From: an archaeon GW2011_AR15
GTDB taxonomy: Archaea; Nanobdellota; Nanobdellia; Woesearchaeales; GW2011-AR15
Length of the DNA: 64,000 nucleotides
Direction of reading: 5' to 3'
NCBI GenBank assembly: GCA_000830295.1
Contig: CP010425.1
Location: 1 to 64,000, forward strand
This document shows, in pieces, positions 1-24,759 of this stretch. Under the pieces are notes generated by a model that was not told the origin of the DNA, did not search any database, and worked only from the letters and a program-made list of their open reading frames with translations. Within the stretch, counting starts at the first letter, position 1, and the number at the start of each line of letters is the position of its first letter. A program made the translations under genes and the position numbers.

Positions 1-49
1 AAAGATAAATAATGGATATTATAAAAAAGAAGCTGGCATCTTAGGGTAC

Positions 50-589
50 ATGCCCAAATCCAAAGGTAGAATTAAATCGCAAAAATATGTTAAAGATTTA
101 CTAACTAAGATTACTAAAAAAAAGACTAAACAAGGAAAAGGTAATCAATTGATTGTTTCTGGAAAAATATATACAACCATAGAGAAGATGTCGGAAGCGT
201 ACACACACTTATATGTTGTAGAAAATACGCTGAGAGATTTAATTAGGAAGGTATTATCTAACGAAGTCGATTGGTGGAAGAATAAAATCCCTCCTGGAAT
301 TCAAAAAGAAGTTGAAGAAACTATCAAAAGAACCCCTTACCACGCAGCCAAGAGAAAAGATGAGTTAGAATATACTCATTTAGGACAATTAAAAGAGATA
401 ATTATTTGCAAAAATAATTGGAATGATTTTACGCCCCATCTAAACAACAAAGATATAACCTCATTTTCAGTATTTATAAACCAAGCAATTGCTTCTAGGA
501 ATGCTATCGGACACTGTATCCCATTAGAAAAACAAGATCTGAAGATTGTTGATGTTAGATTTCAAGATATTCTAAATATGATAAAATAA
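50..589 (+). CDS. Swt1-like HEPN domain protein (cassette 1)
   Basis: 179-aa ORF with AY..LY..EN.LR and an RxxxxH motif (RNAIGH) typical of HEPN domains; start uncertain. Confidence 0.7.
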   Translation: MPKSKGRIKSQKYVKDLLTKITKKKTKQGKGNQLIVSGKIYTTIEKMSEAYTHLYVVENTLRDLIRKVLSNEVDWWKNKIPPGIQKEVEETIKRTPYHAAKRKDELEYTHLGQLKEIIICKNNWNDFTPHLNNKDITSFSVFINQAIASRNAIGHCIPLEKQDLKIVDVRFQDILNMIK

Positions 590-619
590 GCAACCAAAAA
601 CTACGGCACCAATCGGATT

Positions 620-671
620 CCCACAAAAATTAAGAATTTTTGGGGCACAGAAAATCCCTGATTTTCTCGTG
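620..671. repeat. REP/MITE-like double-hairpin element, copy 1
   Basis: CCCACAAAAATTAAGAATTTTTGGGG followed by CACAGAAAATCCCTGATTTTCTCGTG; similar copy at 24582-24635. Confidence 0.75.
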
Positions 672-748
672 TTCGGCAGTAAGAAAACTTCTCCGTTCGC
701 TTCGCTCACTCCGACCACGCTGCGCTCTCACTCCGCTTCGCTTCGTTC

Positions 749-776
749 GGGTCGGCAAACAAGAATTAGCCAAAAT
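749..776 (+). repeat. dif-like site 1
   Basis: GGGTCGGCAAA CAAGAA TTAGCCAAAAT. Confidence 0.7.
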
Positions 777-811
777 TGAGTTTTCACTTAACAGAAGATG
801 AGGCAATGTTT

Positions 812-1147
812 TTAATGTGGTGCGTAGAAGATTATCAATGCGCCTAGAAGTGCTACTAATGCTCCAATAATTTCGTATCGGTCTGGACTTTTCTTATCTA
901 CAATAAATCCCCAGATGATTGAAGAAATAATAAAAATTCCTCCATACGTTGCGTAAACTCTGCCAAAATGAGCTGGTTGTAGTGTGGGAATTACTCCATA
1001 TACAAAAAGAACTAATCCACCAATCAATCCATATAACCACGTTCTTTTTTCCTTCAGCCATCGCCAGACTAAATATCCTCCTCCAATTTCAAATAGGGCT
1101 GCTGCAAAAAATAGTGCCAATGTTGTAATAATTAGTGTTGATGCCAT
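812..1147 (-). CDS. YnfA/UPF0060 family small membrane protein (cassette 2)
   Basis: [13 protein letters not shown] and [12 protein letters not shown] motifs; 4 TM segments. Confidence 0.9.
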
Positions 1148-1500
1148 ATTGATTCCTCCTTTCTTGGCCAGTAGAATATTATGCCAACACCAATAAGTGC
1201 GATGATACCCCCAATAACATCAAACTTGTCTGGCGCAATTCCTTCAAAAATCCATCCCCACAACATTGCCATAACAATGAACACTCCTCCATAAGCAGCA
1301 TAAATTCTATGAAAATGCGATGGCTGAAACGTTGGAACAATTCCATATAAGAATAGTACAAACCCGCCCACAACACCGATCATCCAGCTATAACTTTCTC
1401 GCAGCCATAACCAGACTAAATATCCTCCACCTATCTCGAAAAGTCCAGCTAGGAAAAAGAATAATATTGTTGTAGCAATCTTTTTTGTTTTTTGACGCAT
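1132..1500 (-). CDS. YnfA/UPF0060 family small membrane protein, paralog (cassette 2)
   Basis: [13 protein letters not shown] and [11 protein letters not shown] motifs. Confidence 0.9.
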
Positions 1501-1617
1501 TGATAATACAAAAGTTTCTATTTATATAAAACATCGCCTTTGATGAACGTGAAAACTCAACTTCTCCGTTCGCTACGCTCACTATGACCTCGCTGCGCTC
1601 TCCTCCCTTCGGTTGTC

Positions 1618-1645
1618 GGGTCGGCTAACAGGAATTATGCACAAT
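1618..1645 (+). repeat. dif-like site 2
   Basis: GGGTCGGCTAA CAGGAA TTATGCACAAT. Confidence 0.8.
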
Positions 1646-1659
1646 TGAGTTTTGAGGCA

Positions 1660-1884
1660 CTAAAGAAGTTTAAAGAAATCCTCTCTACTTAACCCAGCTT
1701 GTCTAATAATAGCTCTCAATGTTCCTTTAGCGATTTCTTTATGATTTGGAACAGTCATTCTTCTGAAAGGTTCTTTATTTTGTCTTAGAATAATATGGCT
1801 TCCTGTTTGATGATCTATTTCATAGCCAAATTTTTTAAGAGCTTTAACAACTTCAAGTCCAGAAATAACAGGCAACTTAGGCAT
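1660..1884 (-). CDS. hicA: HicA family toxin (cassette 3)
   Basis: GSH motif and TVPNH...GTLRAIIRQAG. Confidence 0.92.
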   Translation of the reverse strand: MPKLPVISGLEVVKALKKFGYEIDHQTGSHIILRQNKEPFRRMTVPNHKEIAKGTLRAIIRQAGLSREDFFKLL

Positions 1885-2089
1885 GAATATCCACTACTTC
1901 TTCATCAATAGATGAAGGTATTGGTTCATTATGCTTTTTTAGGCTTTCCAGATAGCCTTTCATGGCATCTTTTATATTAACTATAGCTTCGCTTCTAGTT
2001 TTACCTTGAGAGATACAACCTGGTAATGTTGGACACTCAGCCACAAAGATACCATTCTCATCTTGTTCTAACATGACTCTAAATTTCAT
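1877..2089 (-). CDS. hicB: HicB family antitoxin (cassette 3)
   Basis: PTLPGCISQGKT..EA..NIKDA; ATG at 2089 follows an AGGTGAG RBS. Confidence 0.92.
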   Translation of the reverse strand: MKFRVMLEQDENGIFVAECPTLPGCISQGKTRSEAIVNIKDAMKGYLESLKKHNEPIPSSIDEEVVDIHA

Positions 2090-2237
2090 TATACTCACCT
2101 TTCATAAGAAAAGAAGGACTTCTTTAAATAAATTGTGCCTCAAAACCCAACTCTTCGTCGCTTCGCTCCTTGTCCTTTCATCTCTCAACTCGCCAAGAGT
2201 GACTTCACGCAGTTCGTCCTTGGCTCGTTGGAGGAAA

Positions 2238-2265
2238 GGAGCGCATAACATGAATTATACGCAAT
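2238..2265 (+). repeat. dif-like site 3
   Basis: GGAGCGCATAA CATGAA TTATACGCAAT; left arm matches the E. coli dif XerC arm GGTGCGCATAA at 10/11. Confidence 0.85.
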
Positions 2266-2282
2266 TGAAAAAGGGCAAAAAC

Positions 2283-2531
2283 TTACTGTTCATCCTTGTG
2301 ATAGATGTCTAAAAAAATAAGTAACTCTGCTTGTTTATCAAAAGAATAAGAGATTCTGGAAGGGGGCACATATAACTCTCTAGTCCCTTTTCTTCCATAT
2401 CTCATAGGTTTACCAATTTCTGGATTTTCAACTATTTTCTTAATTTGTTTAATTACTCTTTCTTTTAGAGAATTATCTTTAATTTTTGATAATGTCTTAA
2501 TAAAATTTGATTCTCTTTCAATCTCTAGCAT
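2283..2531 (-). CDS. RelE/ParE family toxin (cassette 4)
   Basis: 82 aa; NPEIGKPM...RELYV...RISY...IYHKD pattern. Confidence 0.85.
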   Translation of the reverse strand: MLEIERESNFIKTLSKIKDNSLKERVIKQIKKIVENPEIGKPMRYGRKGTRELYVPPSRISYSFDKQAELLIFLDIYHKDEQ

Positions 2532-2794
2532 TTTTCAAGCTCTTTAAGAAAATCATCTTTTGATAGAGATTCAAACTTACCATTTTCATACCTTTTCCAA
2601 GCTGCTTCGGTCCTTCTTGCAAATTCCAGATCTTCTTCAAGGTTCTTGTTCAGTTTGCTAGCTTTTTTAATAATTAACTGATCCTTATTCTTTATAACAA
2701 GCAACTTTTCACCTATATTAAACTCAGCTCTAAGATCGTTAGGTATAACAATCTGGCCTTTAGTACTCATTTTTGTGATTCCGACATCTATCAT
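2525..2794 (-). CDS. AbrB/MazE family antitoxin (cassette 4)
   Basis: KMSTKGQIVIP..LR swapped-hairpin motif; overlaps the toxin start. Confidence 0.88.
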   Translation of the reverse strand: MIDVGITKMSTKGQIVIPNDLRAEFNIGEKLLVIKNKDQLIIKKASKLNKNLEEDLEFARRTEAAWKRYENGKFESLSKDDFLKELEKC

Positions 2795-2901
2795 TTAACT
2801 CACCTAAGTAAGAATATTCTTACTGATTATTTAAATCTATCGTTTTTGCCCTTTTTCAACTCCTGCGAACATTCGCTTGCTGAATGTTCTCGGCCCTTTC
2901 A

Positions 2902-2929
2902 GAGGCGCATAACATGAATTAGTTTCAAT
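2902..2929 (+). repeat. dif-like site 4
   Basis: GAGGCGCATAA CATGAA TTAGTTTCAAT. Confidence 0.8.
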
Positions 2930-3013
2930 ATTACTCAAGCGACCCCCTAGAAAATCTTAACTGTTACCTTTATTGGCAAATTATATAAACGATGTAGTCC
3001 TAATCGGTTTCAA

Positions 3014-3430
3014 ATGGCAGAAAAATATCTTATCGATACTTCAATTTGGGTTGACCTTTATGAAGATAGAAAAGGCTACCAGAATGAGCCGTTAGGCGAT
3101 TTTGCTTTCAATCTATTCTTGATGATAAAAACAAAACAGGACAAGATTGCCATTACTGATCTCACCATCAGAGAATTAGAAATGAATTATTCAATGGAAG
3201 AGATAAATGGCATGATGAAGCCTTTCGAAGACATCCTGGAGAAACTAGTTGCTTCTAAAAAACAACGCGATGAGGCTAAACTATTGGCTAAAGAAAGAAA
3301 CGTGCCAAAAGGCGATGCTCTTCATGCAATCCTTGCAAGAGATAACAAATTCATCCTTGTATCAAGAGACAAGCACTTTAGAGAATTAACTAACATTTCA
3401 GAGCATCATAAACCTGAAGAGCTTATCTAA
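3014..3430 (+). CDS. PIN domain (VapC-like) nuclease (cassette 5)
   Basis: YLIDTSIW, DALHAILA and SRDKHF PIN motifs. Confidence 0.9.
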   Translation: MAEKYLIDTSIWVDLYEDRKGYQNEPLGDFAFNLFLMIKTKQDKIAITDLTIRELEMNYSMEEINGMMKPFEDILEKLVASKKQRDEAKLLAKERNVPKGDALHAILARDNKFILVSRDKHFRELTNISEHHKPEELI

Positions 3431-3683
3431 TCCTTTTATCAATCTCTTCAAAAGCTTTTTCCCTTATTCTTTCAAGCTCTTCATCGCTTGTTTCCTTCTT
3501 TGAAGCACCCTTCAATTTAGAAATCTCCATCATAGCTTCTTTTAATTTGGAAGCTTCCACTTTCTCTCTAAGGGCATTTCTAATGAACTCTGTCCTGCTC
3601 TGGTAGCCTTCTTTTTTCACAATAGTATCTATATTGTTCAGAAAACTATCTTCAAGTTTTAGACTTATCATTTCAGTAGTCAT
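3423..3683 (-). CDS. Ribbon-helix-helix (CopG) protein, putative antitoxin (cassette 5)
   Basis: ISLKL...ID..V...GYQSRTEFIRNALRE. Confidence 0.85.
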   Translation of the reverse strand: MTTEMISLKLEDSFLNNIDTIVKKEGYQSRTEFIRNALREKVEASKLKEAMMEISKLKGASKKETSDEELERIREKAFEEIDKRIR

Positions 3684-3845
3684 ATATCTATTGTATATAC
3701 AACAGATATATAAGCATTTCTATTTTTCTGCCATTCTCTAAGATATAATTGACGCTATAAATCTAACGTAGGGGGGGTCGCTTTCCGTCATACTCAAAAA
3801 TTTAATCTCAACAAGTTGAGTTAAATTTTTGGTTTTTCTTCGAAA

Positions 3846-3877
3846 AACTCGCATAACATGCATGCATTATATTCAAT
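3846..3877 (+). repeat. dif-like site 5 with a spacer lengthened by 4 nt
   Basis: AACTCGCATAA CATGCATGCA TTATATTCAAT. Confidence 0.75.
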
Positions 3878-3942
3878 TTTCGTGCATATATTTTTTTAAG
3901 GAGACCCAAAAAGCATACCTTATTTTTAAAGAAATATTCTAA

Positions 3943-4551
3943 TTATTTTTTTGTTCCTTGTATTATATACAAACTCGCTAACGTTGGATCTTGACTTGGA
4001 AATATTCTCTCTCCTTCAATACCCAAGTAATATTCTGTTTTGACTGAGAAATATTTGGCCATTGTCTCCACAATTCCAGATAAATCAGTGTGTCTAATCT
4101 TACTCATATATGAATCAGGATCTTGAGTCCACCTCTTGAAATGCTCTGATTTGGAATTAAGAAGCATTATTACAATTCTGCTATTTGGTCTTAAAACCCT
4201 GGCTGTTTCACGGACAGCTCTTTCATAATTATCAATGAATTGTAAAGATGCCACATAAATAGCAGCGTCAAAACTTGAATCTGAAAAATCCATATGTTCT
4301 GCAGATCCCACCACTGTCCTAATACTATCTGGAGCCCCATTTAAAGCTTCTTCAGAAACATCCAGTCCAGTTACATTATAACCATGCTCTGCTAATCCTC
4401 TTTCTATGATGGCCGGACCGCAACCTACACTTAAAACGTCTTTACAACCTTTTAGGGATTCTAAAAGATAATCCAATTCTTGTTCGAATACTTTTCTCCA
4501 AAATTCAGATTGACATGAGTCTAAATAGCCGGGCATATCATGAGTTAACAA
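3943..4551 (-). CDS. Class I SAM-dependent methyltransferase (cassette 6)
   Basis: VLSVGCGP, GLDVS, F.DSSFD and RVLRP motifs; start may be the ATG at 4536. Confidence 0.9.
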   Translation of the reverse strand: MLTHDMPGYLDSCQSEFWRKVFEQELDYLLESLKGCKDVLSVGCGPAIIERGLAEHGYNVTGLDVSEEALNGAPDSIRTVVGSAEHMDFSDSSFDAAIYVASLQFIDNYERAVRETARVLRPNSRIVIMLLNSKSEHFKRWTQDPDSYMSKIRHTDLSGIVETMAKYFSVKTEYYLGIEGERIFPSQDPTLASLYIIQGTKK

Positions 4552-4696
4552 CTTATAATATTTAAATAATTTGATTTTAATTACACATAAAGGCTATAGG
4601 GGTCTCACTGTTTTAAACTATGCACGAAAACTCTTCGGGATTTTTTTGCTTCGCAAAAAACTGCCTTGCAGGCTATCCCTCGTCCTCCTTTCAGTC

Positions 4697-4724
4697 GGGT
4701 CGGTTAACAGTGATTATGCGCAAT
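4697..4724 (+). repeat. dif-like site 6
   Basis: GGGTCGGTTAA CAGTGA TTATGCGCAAT. Confidence 0.8.
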
Positions 4725-4769
4725 ATTACTCGGGTGGGCTAAGATGTTTAAATAGAAGACAACAAAAAA

Positions 4770-4892
4770 TTATAATTCTCCAATGGCAGTCAAGAGCTTT
4801 TCGTGGCCTTTTACAAGATTCTTAAATCGCTCAATCTCTTCAGATACAATCTCCAATTTTTCCTTATCGTTTGAACTCTCTGATTTTCCCAT
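4770..4892 (-). CDS. 40-aa small protein, putative antitoxin for Doc (not in ORF track)
   Basis: Manual translation MGKSESSNDKEKLEIVSEEIERFKNLVKGHEKLLTAIGEL; overlaps the doc 3' end and fills the rest of cassette 7. Confidence 0.55.
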   Translation of the reverse strand: MGKSESSNDKEKLEIVSEEIERFKNLVKGHEKLLTAIGEL

Positions 4893-5262
4893 TTTTTATC
4901 CACTCCTTTATTTCTTCATCAGTATAATGATTTTCCCTGATGCCAGTCATGACTCTCGCATTTGCTGGGTCATCTTTGATGCCAAGTTTTGCCTTATTTG
5001 ATAAAATAAATTCTTTCATAGTTATAAATGCTGTCCTTCTGTTGCCGCTTGCAAAGGCATGTTTTTGAACTAATCCTTTTAGCAAAATTGCAGCTTTGTC
5101 GTATATATCTCCAACTTTATTTTTGCAATCGTTAAGGACATCATTTATCTTGCTGTAACTCAAAACTTTTGGCTGGTCTGCCTTTTTCACTTTTATGAAC
5201 TGCAAAGCTAAGTAGTTGTATTCTATTATCCTATCCGATGTTGGATAGACTATTTCTGCCAT
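4864..5262 (-). CDS. Fic/Doc family toxin (cassette 7)
   Basis: HAFASGNRRTA, a variant of the Fic/Doc motif. Confidence 0.88.
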   Translation of the reverse strand: MAEIVYPTSDRIIEYNYLALQFIKVKKADQPKVLSYSKINDVLNDCKNKVGDIYDKAAILLKGLVQKHAFASGNRRTAFITMKEFILSNKAKLGIKDDPANARVMTGIRENHYTDEEIKEWIKNGKIREFKR

Positions 5263-5374
5263 TGAGTATACTATTTAAAAACAACTATATAAATATTGTT
5301 TTTATGAATGTTTGTCGTTCTATGTTTCACTCTATTTTACGCCTACCCTGCGTCATACTGTCCGTTCGCTTCGC

Positions 5375-5402
5375 TCACCGCATAACATGAATTATGTTCA
5401 AT
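5375..5402 (+). repeat. dif-like site 7
   Basis: TCACCGCATAA CATGAA TTATGTTCAAT; right arm matches the E. coli dif XerD arm TTATGTTAAAT at 10/11. Confidence 0.85.
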
Positions 5403-5500
5403 TGTGTTTAAGTTCTAAATTACGGTAGCTGGGGGGAGTCCGGGTGCTTCGCACATTCCAAAACAAAACGTTTTTATAGAATCTTTAAAACATATCTGGC

Positions 5501-6232
5501 ATGGCAGAATTGTTATTTTTCCTCTTGGCTTTTGTAGCAGAAGTAATTGGAACTATTGCTGGTTTTGGCTCTTCAACTATATTTTTGCCTCTCGCCCTGT
5601 TTTTTGTAGATTTTAAAACTGCATTAATCCTTGTTGCATTTTTTCACATTTTTGGCAACTTGGGCAGGATAACATTCTTCCGTCATGGGCTTGATAAAAA
5701 ACTAATTCTGGTTTTCGGCGTACCCAGTGTTTTATTAACTGTCTTTGGCGCACTATTGGTAAACTACACCCCGCAGGATATCCTAAAATTTGTTTTGGGC
5801 ATCTTTTTGCTAGTATTCTCCATAACTTCATTGATAAAACCAGATTTAAAATTCAAACCTTCAAGAAAAAATGCGGTCATCGGCGGAGGTTTGTCAGGAT
5901 TTTTGGCAGGTTTAATTGGTACTGGAGGTGCTTTAAGAGGCGCATTTCTGACAGCATTTAACCTAAAAAAAGAGAATTACATAGCGACTGCGGCGGCCAT
6001 CGCACTTGCTGTAGATATAACCAGAATCCCAATCTATTTTGGGAGCGGATTTCTTGGACAACAATTTTATTTGTATCTTCCATTGCTTTTTGTAATTGCC
6101 ATTGCCGGCTCATTTACTGGCAAAAAGATTGTTGATAAAATACCCCAGCAATCATTTAGAAAATTTGTTTTGACAGTAATTGCAATAGTAAGTTTGAAAT
6201 TTATTTATGATGGAATTTTATTCTTTTTGTAG
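5501..6232 (+). CDS. Sulfite exporter TauE/SafE family membrane protein (cassette 8)
   Basis: GTIAGFGSS and GFLAGLIGTGG repeats; about 8 TM segments. Confidence 0.88.
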   Translation: MAELLFFLLAFVAEVIGTIAGFGSSTIFLPLALFFVDFKTALILVAFFHIFGNLGRITFFRHGLDKKLILVFGVPSVLLTVFGALLVNYTPQDILKFVLGIFLLVFSITSLIKPDLKFKPSRKNAVIGGGLSGFLAGLIGTGGALRGAFLTAFNLKKENYIATAAAIALAVDITRIPIYFGSGFLGQQFYLYLPLLFVIAIAGSFTGKKIVDKIPQQSFRKFVLTVIAIVSLKFIYDGILFFL

Positions 6233-6393
6233 GCGTTCCACTCTTTTTTTAGAAAAAAGAAACAAAAAATCTGACGCCCCTCTCTCGTCCTTCAGACATA
6301 TACACTCCCTGCGGTCGGATTTATCAGTAATCCAAAAACTCTAAAATTTTCCTTCGGAACGTTGCACTAAATTTTAGGTCTTCCCGTTGGTCA

Positions 6394-6421
6394 GATGAAT
6401 ATAACATGGCTTAAATGGCAA
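6394..6421 (+). repeat. dif-like site 8, array/backbone boundary
   Basis: GATGAATATAA CATGGC TTAAATGGCAA; the right arm differs from the internal sites and housekeeping genes follow. Confidence 0.7.
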
Positions 6422-6459
6422 GCTTTTTATAATCTCTTTAAATCAATAAACCAGGGTGA

Positions 6460-7737
<1,278 letters not shown>

Positions 7738-24489: not shown

Positions 24490-24564
24490 GGGCTTGTGGC
24501 GTAATCTGGCTATCGCGCCCGACTGGCAGTCGGGAGACTTCGGGTTCAAATCCCGACAAGTCCA
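24490..24564 (+). tRNA. tRNA-Ala(GGC)
   Basis: Acceptor GGGCTTG/CAAGTCC with G3-U70, anticodon arm CCCGA-CTGGCAG-TCGGG, T-loop TTCAAAT. Confidence 0.93.
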
Positions 24565-24687: not shown

Positions 24688-24759
24688 GCCTCTGTAGCAT
24701 AGTGGTATTGCGTTGCCTTGGTAAGGCAAAGGTCGAGGGTTCAAATCCCTTCAGAGGCT
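24688..24759 (+). tRNA. tRNA-Thr(GGT)
   Basis: Acceptor GCCTCTG/CAGAGGC, anticodon arm TTGCC-TTGGTAA-GGCAA, T-loop TTCAAAT. Confidence 0.93.

Follow-up and report, generated by a model that had tools for sequence, protein, structure and literature searches.

A run of dif-like sites at the start of the contig

The stretch of DNA analysed here (the window) comprises the first 64 kb of the single contig that makes up the assembled genome of the Woesearchaeales archaeon GW2011_AR15 (1,157,790 bp, GC content 42.5%, the final 100 bases being N), such that base 1 of the window is base 1 of the contig. Its first 6.4 kb hold an array of small gene cassettes separated by dif-like sites. The contig start truncates the array, which continues upstream past base 1 of the window, and the flanks of the array are chromosomal, with genes for aIF2-alpha and S27e on one side and purA/purB on the other (Table 1). 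The aIF2-alpha and S27e genes, together with those relatives that carry names, point to the Woesearchaeota / Nanoarchaeota. Below we call this source genome G000, and designate other genomes and their contigs by labels of the form G###:C# and loci by labels of the form L###.

A first-pass annotation of this DNA had listed eight directly repeated sites, seven of them with an exact 11-6-11 geometry. All eight were found on the plus strand, as direct repeats beginning at positions 749, 1618, 2238, 2902, 3846, 4697, 5375 and 6394, and in seven of them two imperfectly inverted arms of 11 bp enclose a spacer of 6 bp; the exception is site 5 (3846), whose spacer is 10 nt long. The annotation also had the left arm of site 3 and the right arm of site 7 each matching the sequence it quoted as E. 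coli dif at 10 of 11 positions, which is correct by direct reading (GGAGCGCATAA; TTATGTTCAAT); the 28-mer so quoted occurs in published papers, including one on dif prediction, in the excerpts of those papers available. The pattern WAACANNNRTTAKNNNMAAT has seven matches in the window, six of them array sites, all on the plus strand, against an expectation of 0.00 from 100 shuffles. Across all 1,157,790 bp it has six forward matches and one reverse match, the reversed control having one and none, respectively.

When a position weight matrix (PWM) was built from the seven 11-6-11 sites and the whole genome was scanned with it, six strong sites scored 29.9–37.9 bits and the top match elsewhere 18.4 bits, so that the six sites are unique in the genome. 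Because the self-scores of such a matrix are circular, the informative part of this result is the absence of strong matches elsewhere: the sites are confined to one locus and are not scattered through the genome, the outcome that the annotation had named as telling against an array. Site 8, at 17.0 bits, falls within the background range (three unrelated matches score 17.2–18.4 bits). We accept this site, weak as it is by sequence alone, because the junction upstream of it shares homology with the one that terminates the array on G040:C3.

The modules between sites are 620–1019 bp long. Their description in the annotation as self-contained, recombinase-free units of one or two genes in either orientation is borne out, with Pfam backing the gene labels (the match for the HEPN-like gene being below cut-off; Table 1) and with three of the named cassette genes in the window lying on the plus strand and nine on the minus strand.

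Table 1. Coordinates of the cassettes, junctions and neighbouring genes in the window
Feature	Position	Strand	Details
Cassette gene, HEPN-like	1..589	+	Pfam HEPN_Swt1 23.7 bits, below the cut-off of 27.5; 5′ side cut by contig start, cassette start inside the assembly gap
Junction 1	687..776	+	5′ box ACTTCTCCG (687), GC-rich structured part, core site 1 749-776 GGGTCGGCAAA-CAAGAA-TTAGCCAAAAT; PWM 29.9 bits
Cassette, two YnfA/UPF0060 genes (812-1147, 1132-1500)	777..1548	-	Pfam 3.5e-42, 6.3e-38; X/X′ 776-787 / 1549-1560
Junction 2	1549..1645	+	X′ 1549-1560, box ACTTCTCCG at 1560, core site 2 1618-1645; PWM 37.8 bits
Cassette, HicA (1660-1884) and HicB (1877-2098)	1646..2134	-	Pfam; terminal inverted repeat 1645-1660 / 2135-2150, 16 nt, 94%
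Junction 3	2135..2265	+	X′, box, long hairpin overlapping left arm, core site 3 2238-2265; PWM 37.9 bits; bottom-strand fold z = -2.14
Cassette, ParE/RelE-type toxin (2283-2531) and AbrB/MazE-type antitoxin (2525-2794)	2266..2841	-	Pfam; inverted repeat 2265-2282 / 2842-2859, 18 nt, 100%
Junction 4	2842..2929	+	X′, box ACTCCTGCG at 2859, 9-bp hairpin, core site 4 2902-2929; PWM 34.8 bits
Cassette, PIN (3014-3430, +) and RHH (3423-3683, -)	2930..3772	both	Pfam; X/X′ 2937-2947 / 3773-3783
Junction 5	3773..3877	+	X′, box-like CATACTC, AT-rich hairpin, core site 5 3846-3877, 10-nt spacer; palindrome
Cassette, S-adenosylmethionine (SAM)-dependent methyltransferase (3943-4551)	3878..4618	-	Pfam Methyltransf_11 1.1e-19; X/X′ 3877-3888 / 4619-4630
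Junction 6	4619..4724	+	X′, box ACTCTTCGG, two hairpins, core site 6 4697-4724; PWM 34.0 bits
Cassette, Fic/Doc (4864-5262)	4725..5342	-	Pfam Fic 2.8e-07; overlapping 40-aa open reading frame (4770-4892) without family match
Junction 7 (short)	5343..5402	+	GCGTCATACTG box, core site 7 5375-5402; PWM 31.2 bits
Cassette, TauE/SafE permease (5501-6232)	5403..6336	+	Pfam 1.3e-35
Terminal junction 8	6337..6421	+	Junction and left arm (GATGAATATAA) of cassette type; right arm (TTAAATGGCAA) divergent, taken as a putative chromosomal half-site; PWM 17.0 bits
purA	6478-7737		Directly past the array
tRNA gene	24490-24564		Rfam, 62.1 bits
tRNA gene	24688-24759		Rfam, 72.4 bits

Composite junctions and matched cassette ends

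The cores are parts of longer, composite junctions of 80–170 nt, each made up of a 5′ box, covarying hairpins and the core. In particular, upstream of each core lie 35–140 nt of GC-rich DNA that open with the box ACTCYTSCG (and variants of it) and contain one or two hairpins. In the junction type of G005, G002 and G009 the stem sequences vary while the pairing is kept, and the loop AGATTACCT is invariant. Using an alignment of 14 junctions from three genomes, we found that 89.6% of cells were paired, compared with 76.4% in shuffles (0 of 500 reached the observed value), that 59 cells were changed on both sides, compared with 20.4, and that the covariation score was 0.369, compared with 0.142 in shuffles (0 of 500) and 0.05–0.13 when the partners were slid. 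Searches of Rfam gave no junction match at the gathering threshold in the window and five related loci, nor one at E ≤ 1 in window positions 1-6600 (the lone match there at E ≤ 1, wcaG at E = 0.082, is at chance level and was rejected).

Each cassette, moreover, carries ends that are matched to one another. The cassette start, from the tail of the right arm onward, is complementary to a stretch just 5′ of the box at the far end of the same cassette (2265-2282 with 2842-2859 and 1645-1660 with 2135-2150 are examples; Table 1). Among 30 cassettes from seven loci, the longest exact complementary run between a cassette's own ends averaged 10.4 nt, compared with 6.5 nt for 870 non-own pairs, and runs of at least 9 nt were present in 19 of the 30 own pairs but in only 52 of the 870 others; an independent analysis confirmed the complementarity of the ends. 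When the end of a cassette was joined in silico to its own start at the centre of the core, thereby reconstituting the site of a circular cassette, and the product was folded, the mean fold energy was -33.1 kcal/mol, compared with -25.5 kcal/mol in the array context and -25.2 kcal/mol with the starts of other cassettes. The own join was lower than the array context in 25 of 29 cases (p = 2e-5) and lower than the joins to other cassettes' starts in 26 of 29 (p = 3e-6). The bottom strand of the reconstituted sites folded slightly better in 24 of 29 cases, a hint of a preferred strand.

The arms of the cores also appear to be matched cassette by cassette. The right arm of one site and the left arm of the next agreed at 3.95 of 8 outer positions (n = 20, permutation p = 0.0002), compared with 3.36 of 8 for the two arms within a site (n = 25, p = 0.049) and 2.89 for random pairs. 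Matching of this kind is as expected if circles with a palindromic core recombine in its central region. In G002 an unusual pair of arms (ending in ACGG) brackets an inner cassette that has a matching pair of its own, as expected for insertion into an existing site. On contig G040:C3 there are two tandem copies of a 477-bp cassette, identical at 486 of 488 bases, and each copy begins at a core site. At the same locus (L036, reversed coordinates 5600-6700), a 26-nt stretch that precedes the first site recurs after the second of the duplicate copies (AATCGAATACAAGTNCTCAATTTAAC); this stretch appears, from its sequence, to form a minimal right-arm/left-arm unit of about 30 nt.

The recombinase, its head site and arrays in other genomes

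The only PF00589 match above cut-off in G000 (a genome 96.8% complete) is encoded outside the window, on the minus strand at G000:C1:1153836-1154795, 2.9 kb short of the terminal run of N. If the contig is circular, this recombinase gene adjoins the head of the array across the gap and reads away from it. The first-pass annotation had proposed locating xerA or any intI, and the sole full-length tyrosine recombinase proves to be of the Xer family and to lack the insertion specific to IntI. Residues 46-294 align in one stretch with Pyrococcus abyssi XerA (4a8e), whereas the alignment with Vibrio VchIntIA (2a3v) falls into two stretches, between which chain residues 184-237, the IntI-specific region, have about nine counterpart residues. 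Judged by these alignments, the protein is not an IntI, the insertion being absent. Its best NCBIfam match is the IntI model TIGR02249 (186 bits; cut-off 265), its score with the XerA_Arch model NF040815 is 181.6 bits (cut-off 220), and its N-terminal domain is PF13495. The catalytic residues R165, K190/193, H252, R255, H278 and Y287 are invariant among nine aligned homologs of 270–331 aa (333 alignment columns). Elsewhere in G000, a 165-aa open reading frame (ORF) at G000:C1:119542-120039 (L002 1495-1992) encodes a degenerate catalytic domain only (PF00589 25.5 bits, below cut-off), and may by its sequence be the remnant of a second recombinase.

At E ≤ 1e-30 the recombinase family numbers 1,740 proteins, and homologs were found in 48 of 61 relatives. 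Their source names are XerD, XerA or tyrosine recombinase, with "integron integrase" given to none of the 120 matches listed. A scan of genome contigs with the recombinase alignment returned matches named Woesearchaeota, Nanoarchaeota, Pacearchaeota and Aenigmatarchaeota, with one further site under the strict core pattern. In a tree of 59 sequences (quick IQ-TREE) the array-linked recombinases form one clade of 20 rows with a value of 99 in the approximate likelihood ratio test of Shimodaira–Hasegawa type (SH-aLRT); outside it fall the second Xer-like paralogs of G039, G045, G046, G015 and G058, and two Xer proteins of Methanosarcinales. Many recombinase homologs, and not those of the array clade only, lie 0.2–2 kb from a contig end on their 5′ side, which fits the breaking of short-read assemblies at repeat arrays.

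At 140–220 nt (alternatively given as about 70–190 nt) upstream of the recombinase gene lies a conserved 11-6-11 head site (approximately CGCATATAWAGNG-TTANNNNCAAT), present in 18 of 21 clade loci (10 of 11 in one set and 8 of 10 in another); the G000 version is TCTTCGCATAT-AAAGTG-TTAAGTTCAAT. The first and last sites of the array are hybrids: the head site has a left half that is conserved between genomes and a right half like a cassette right arm, and site 8 has a cassette-type left arm and a divergent right arm. In its arrangement the head site resembles attI, as far as sequence comparison goes. (The idea that the two outermost half-sites, the head left arm and the site-8 right arm, derive from one ancestral palindrome was considered but is too tenuous to put forward.) A tandem motif, GTCCAGTG(N0-2)GTCCAGTG, lies between the recombinase start and the head site in L132, L134, L146, L040, L012, L014, L008 and L017, and was not seen in the printed stretch of G000; the recombinase gene may use this motif as an operator or promoter. 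The start of the TauE cassette (window 5403-5475; TGTGTTTAAGTTCT ... GGGGGAGT.C ... and a hairpin with a TTCG loop) resembles the sequence that follows the head site in G115, in G273 and, partly, in G000 (L158 ~2390-2500; L146; G000:C1 ~1154895-1154990), and may represent a conserved first-cassette or leader element. From the G000 head site to the contig end (G000:C1:1154967-1157690) there are an AbrB/MazE-like gene, a winged-helix gene and a long minus-strand ORF, along with a weak match to a SwaI-like restriction endonuclease (22.5 bits, below cut-off).

We surveyed 401 genomes of the order with the strict core pattern, including two unpublished ones (G130 and G225), and found at least three matches on one strand in 24 of them (neither unpublished genome among these), compared with none of 401 for the reversed control. 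Individual inspection covered 17 of the 24; in one of the 24, G013, the matches are scattered and there is no array. Within a genome the sites occupy one locus in a single orientation. Comparison covered 27 loci, and the largest arrays have 12 sites. The recombinase gene is contiguous with the array and reads away from it, with the right arms of the sites pointing away from the gene, on G005:C26, G039:C43, G002:C1, G026:C5, G375:C10, G273:C2, G166:C8, G335:C29 and G115:C1; together with G000, where the link crosses the gap, the gene heads the array in ten genomes. The cores of G005 are a perfect 9-4-9 palindrome inside the 11-6-11 frame. Neither purA, purB, the aIF2-alpha gene nor the S27e gene was found beside the other arrays compared.

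Cargo is shared across these arrays, with the same cassette families recurring in arrays of other genera. The AbrB/RelE cassette has relatives in the arrays of G009:C188 (73/54% amino acid identity, with the same cassette start) and G252:C36 (68/65%), PIN/RHH homologs are present in the G005:C26 and G273:C2 arrays, and a HEPN homolog that is 61% identical is present in the G273:C2 array; a methyltransferase homolog (60%) is found on contig G039:C43, 7.6 kb past the last site detected there. Six other arrays carry genes for NUDIX (three times), MazE (twice), PIN, ParE, RHH, TspO, MscS and several domains of unknown function, a list that includes ORFs from the 1.5 kb past each last site, some of which may fall outside the arrays.

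Evidence of excision was sought in the assembled Logan metagenome contigs, where the runs containing the array are groundwater and soil metagenomes. The contig of one run reaches 1,518 nt upstream of window base 1. The contig joints (753>2910, 737>5392 and 742>6337 among them) were considered as excision products and not counted; they probably come from repeats of other organisms, because in every one of them one side is shorter than 31 nt or the depth is unlike that of the host. In runs X10 and X11 (low share) some of the cassettes are present with 100% identity, but their depth of about 3 is too thin to inform on cassette content. Junction bins in these contigs are 5–80 times deeper than cassette bins, so that junction repeats are abundant in those communities. 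The word depth of window 6337-6374 (aaactctaaaattttccttcgg...cactaaattt) is about 1,000–7,300, compared with about 13 in its flanks (some 500-fold), so that this segment of the terminal junction must rank among the most frequent junction types there. A metagenome scan with the methyltransferase cassette protein gave relatives at 54–63% identity on short contigs in which the core pattern was absent. On one such contig (L136, 1,270 bp) a direct repeat of another sort, about 70 nt long (agagctccagtttctgattactagagtgatg...), stands on either side of a methyltransferase homolog (54%) and may be another kind of cassette boundary.

A probable cassette system on Xer-type parts, its rivals and its relatives

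Taken together, we think it likely that the window holds the distal portion of a gene-cassette array that resembles an integron and operates with Xer-type components. The anatomy of the array, its statistics, its conservation and its spread are observations; recombination itself is what we infer from these sequences, with the pairing of arms, the nested sites, the shared cassettes and the tandem duplicate all pointing to circular cassettes that recombine at the centre of the core. The head-encoded Xer-family recombinase would exchange strands in the central region of the 28-bp cores. A cassette (~0.35–1.3 kb) has a right arm first and a composite junction last, with, in most cases, one or two genes that have their own signals and lie in either orientation; the junction runs from a closing-stem half through the box ACTCYTSCG and one or two hairpins to a left arm. 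Recombination between two direct cores would release a circular cassette whose site joins the cassette's own left and right arms and whose own two ends close the structured part, and the circle could integrate again, either at the head site or into another core. By analogy alone, the structured part might serve as an accessory or selectivity element, either as folded single-stranded DNA, as in attC, or as accessory sequence, as in cer/psi. The broader proposition is that members of the Woesearchaeales (DPANN) widely carry an active, distinct and previously undescribed gene-capture platform, comprising a recombinase of this Xer clade and a terminus-proximal head site, that captures, stores and releases circles by means of a dif-type duplex core plus a folded part closed by the cassette itself; to this we give roughly even chances. 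The annotation had known of no such array in archaea, and our literature search agrees, having found no description of archaeal Xer-type cassette arrays in the texts and excerpts available; the loci may overlap with the attC clusters of Nanoarchaeota in PMC9668308.

Several observations weigh against this account. No recombinase gene lies within at least 5 kb on the head side of the arrays on G040:C3, G317:C20 and G391:C11, and 11 further arrays are cut by a contig end on that side. In G000 the link between recombinase and array spans a gap of 100 N that holds at least 1.5 kb, and no core site was found in the 2.8 kb that separate the head site from this gap. Scoring of the head site was by eye, and the recombinase tree came from a quick search and was midpoint-rooted. 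Pairing of arms by cassette is favoured over pairing within the site only moderately, G005 being uninformative because its cores are nearly identical, and the tandem duplication on G040:C3 could also come from homologous recombination between junction repeats. The junctions aligned for covariation are related members of one family, such that the shuffle control overstates significance and the slide control is the safer one. Shuffles fold as well as the junctions of G000 do in their array context (z from +1.0 to -2.1). Finally, no excision junction, circle or within-population variant was seen in the Logan contigs.

The annotation had attributed the array to the host XerA, stacking cassettes at the chromosomal dif. 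In the corresponding alternative, a housekeeping XerA serially integrated recombinase-free circles at a single terminus-region dif, in the manner of integrative mobile elements exploiting Xer (IMEX), with no dedicated platform and with the structured parts as passengers. Dimer resolution by XerA at dif is described in archaea (Cortez et al. 2010, PMC2958812), and the available part of that study places the dif sites of Thermococcales 122–142 degrees from orc1/cdc6, similar to the positions of the array in G000 (~147 degrees) and in the second single-contig genome, G115 (~168 degrees). The cores are dif-like, the enzyme aligns end to end with XerA, and G000 contains no second full-length tyrosine recombinase, no canonical XerA that we could find and, by the PWM scan, no other dif-like site. 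Because no other Xer and no other dif-like site was seen, resolution of chromosome dimers in G000 may also fall to this enzyme and these sites, and a link of the array to the chromosomal dif is possible. The rest of the attribution fits less well: the dif of Thermococcales is single-copy and not beside xerA, according to the same part of PMC2958812, whereas here the gene heads the array in ten genomes and has a head site next to it (18 of 21 loci); array-linked enzymes form a clade of their own, apart from the second paralog kept by five genomes; and GC skew is too noisy to place the terminus. Furthermore, the covarying hairpins and co-adapted cassette ends point to selection on the cassette site itself, and we consider serial stacking at a housekeeping dif to be improbable.

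The array might instead be a divergent true integron, with a recombinase related to IntI and with junctions that are attC sites recombining as folded bottom strands. Integrons with IntI and attC are reported in archaea, including Nanoarchaeota, by the accessible text of Ghaly et al. 2022 (PMC9668308), and the layout here of head gene, head site and cassettes, the cargo rich in toxin–antitoxin modules, the top NCBIfam match to TIGR02249, the N-terminal PF13495 domain and the slightly better folding of the bottom strand are all in keeping with this possibility, as are outer inverted repeats in some junctions that look like RYYYAAC / TTRRRY (ACTCAAC / TTGAGT). However, the TIGR02249 score is under the IntI cut-off, and the enzyme lacks the IntI-specific insertion, a feature said in the excerpted texts to define archaeal IntIs (PMC9668308) and to be essential if integrons are to function (PMC8138268). 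When four G000 junctions were folded as DNA on both strands as candidate attC hairpins, none was clearly more stable than shuffles, and neither L″/L′ pairing nor a whole-site hairpin was present in them. The conserved element is a duplex-type 11-6-11 palindromic core, at which the arm pairing puts the crossover, and the genes lie in both orientations. We therefore regard a true integron as very unlikely. That the array uses neither attC nor IntI, as the annotation held, is right insofar as there is no IntI and the junctions folded do not look like attC-type hairpins, but the junctions do carry an attC-analogous part, made up of the box ACTCYTSCG, covarying hairpins and a cassette-specific closing stem. 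Least probable of all is that there is no present-day site-specific recombination, the sites being repetitive extragenic palindromic (REP)-like, terminator-like or regulatory repeats, or the remains of a system now extinct, within a genomic island of variable content: the lack of a recombination product in the Logan contigs, the great abundance of junction repeats in the community and the heterogeneity of the G000 junctions (some as short as junction 7) would suit such repeats, whereas confinement to one locus per genome in one orientation, the tie to one recombinase clade with intact catalytic residues and a conserved head site, the 486/488-identical tandem cassette and the cassette-specific end complementarity kept in 19 of 30 cassettes would not.

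If the broader proposition is correct, then the platform would be a counterpart of the integron, either independent or ancestral, that connects the resolution of chromosome dimers with gene capture. The origin of integron integrases is thought to lie among Xer-like recombinases. To our knowledge, every integron described so far, archaeal ones included, uses an IntI with the extra domain and a folded attC. On the reading as an Xer-type cassette system, the arrays would represent either another way of capturing cassettes or a living intermediate that bridges Xer/dif and IntI/attC. They would explain the exchange of toxin–antitoxin, defence and membrane functions among the tiny genomes of DPANN archaea, as well as the frequent assembly breaks beside this recombinase gene; they would make it testable whether a dimer-resolution site doubles as a gene-capture site; and they would provide integron-finding software with a new class of site.

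Of the known systems, the integron is the nearest in layout. In integrons, IntI has an additional domain around patch III, an attI site adjoins a divergently oriented intI with the array downstream, attC sites are imperfect hairpins of 57–141 nt with paired R″/R′ and L″/L′ boxes, and the cassettes are mostly promoterless, in one orientation and expressed from Pc. The arrays share with them a recombinase gene that sits at the array head and reads away, next to a conserved head site and in the same orientation in all ten genomes; direct arrays of short cassettes of one or two genes separated by recombination sites; cassette starts complementary to the far end of their own site, with covarying structured sites that can be homogeneous within one genome (G005); and a cargo of toxin–antitoxin and restriction–modification genes and small membrane proteins, with empty and duplicated cassettes. 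They differ in that the insertion specific to IntI is missing from their recombinase, whose score falls short of the IntI cut-off, in that the apparent crossover point is a palindromic, duplex-type 11-6-11 core rather than an R/L-box hairpin, in that the composite site is longer (up to ~170 nt) and branched, and in that the genes lie in both orientations; the arrays are, moreover, possibly placed at the replication terminus.

The pdif modules of Acinetobacter are likewise small, recombinase-free and often toxin–antitoxin modules that are bounded by 28-bp Xer sites, and they are shuffled between replicons. Unlike the direct, chromosomal sites of the arrays, which go with one head-encoded enzyme, pdif sites alternate (C/D, D/C), are mostly plasmid-borne and use two recombinases (XerC/XerD); the array junctions, in addition, have a large structured part and cassette-specific closing stems. 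IMEX (CTX-phi, TLC-phi and the gonococcal island), too, are elements without a recombinase of their own that use an Xer enzyme and a dif-like site, and when they integrate serially, arrays of hybrid sites result; the site used by CTX-phi is folded and single-stranded. These elements, however, are phages, satellites and islands of several kb with replication or structural genes, whereas the units of the arrays are gene cassettes of 0.35–1.3 kb without replication or phage genes, and the gene for the enzyme is linked to the array. Finally, the arrays have in common with archaeal XerA/dif a single Xer-type enzyme that aligns over its full length with P. abyssi XerA, sites with imperfect 11-bp inverted repeats and a 6-bp spacer, like bacterial dif, and possibly their placement, which is ~150–170 degrees from orc1/cdc6 in two genomes. 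What sets them apart is that dif, in the portion of PMC2958812 cited above, is single-copy and away from xerA, whereas the array has at least eight copies beside the gene, and that the array enzyme belongs to a separate clade and scores below the XerA_Arch cut-off (182 versus 220 bits).

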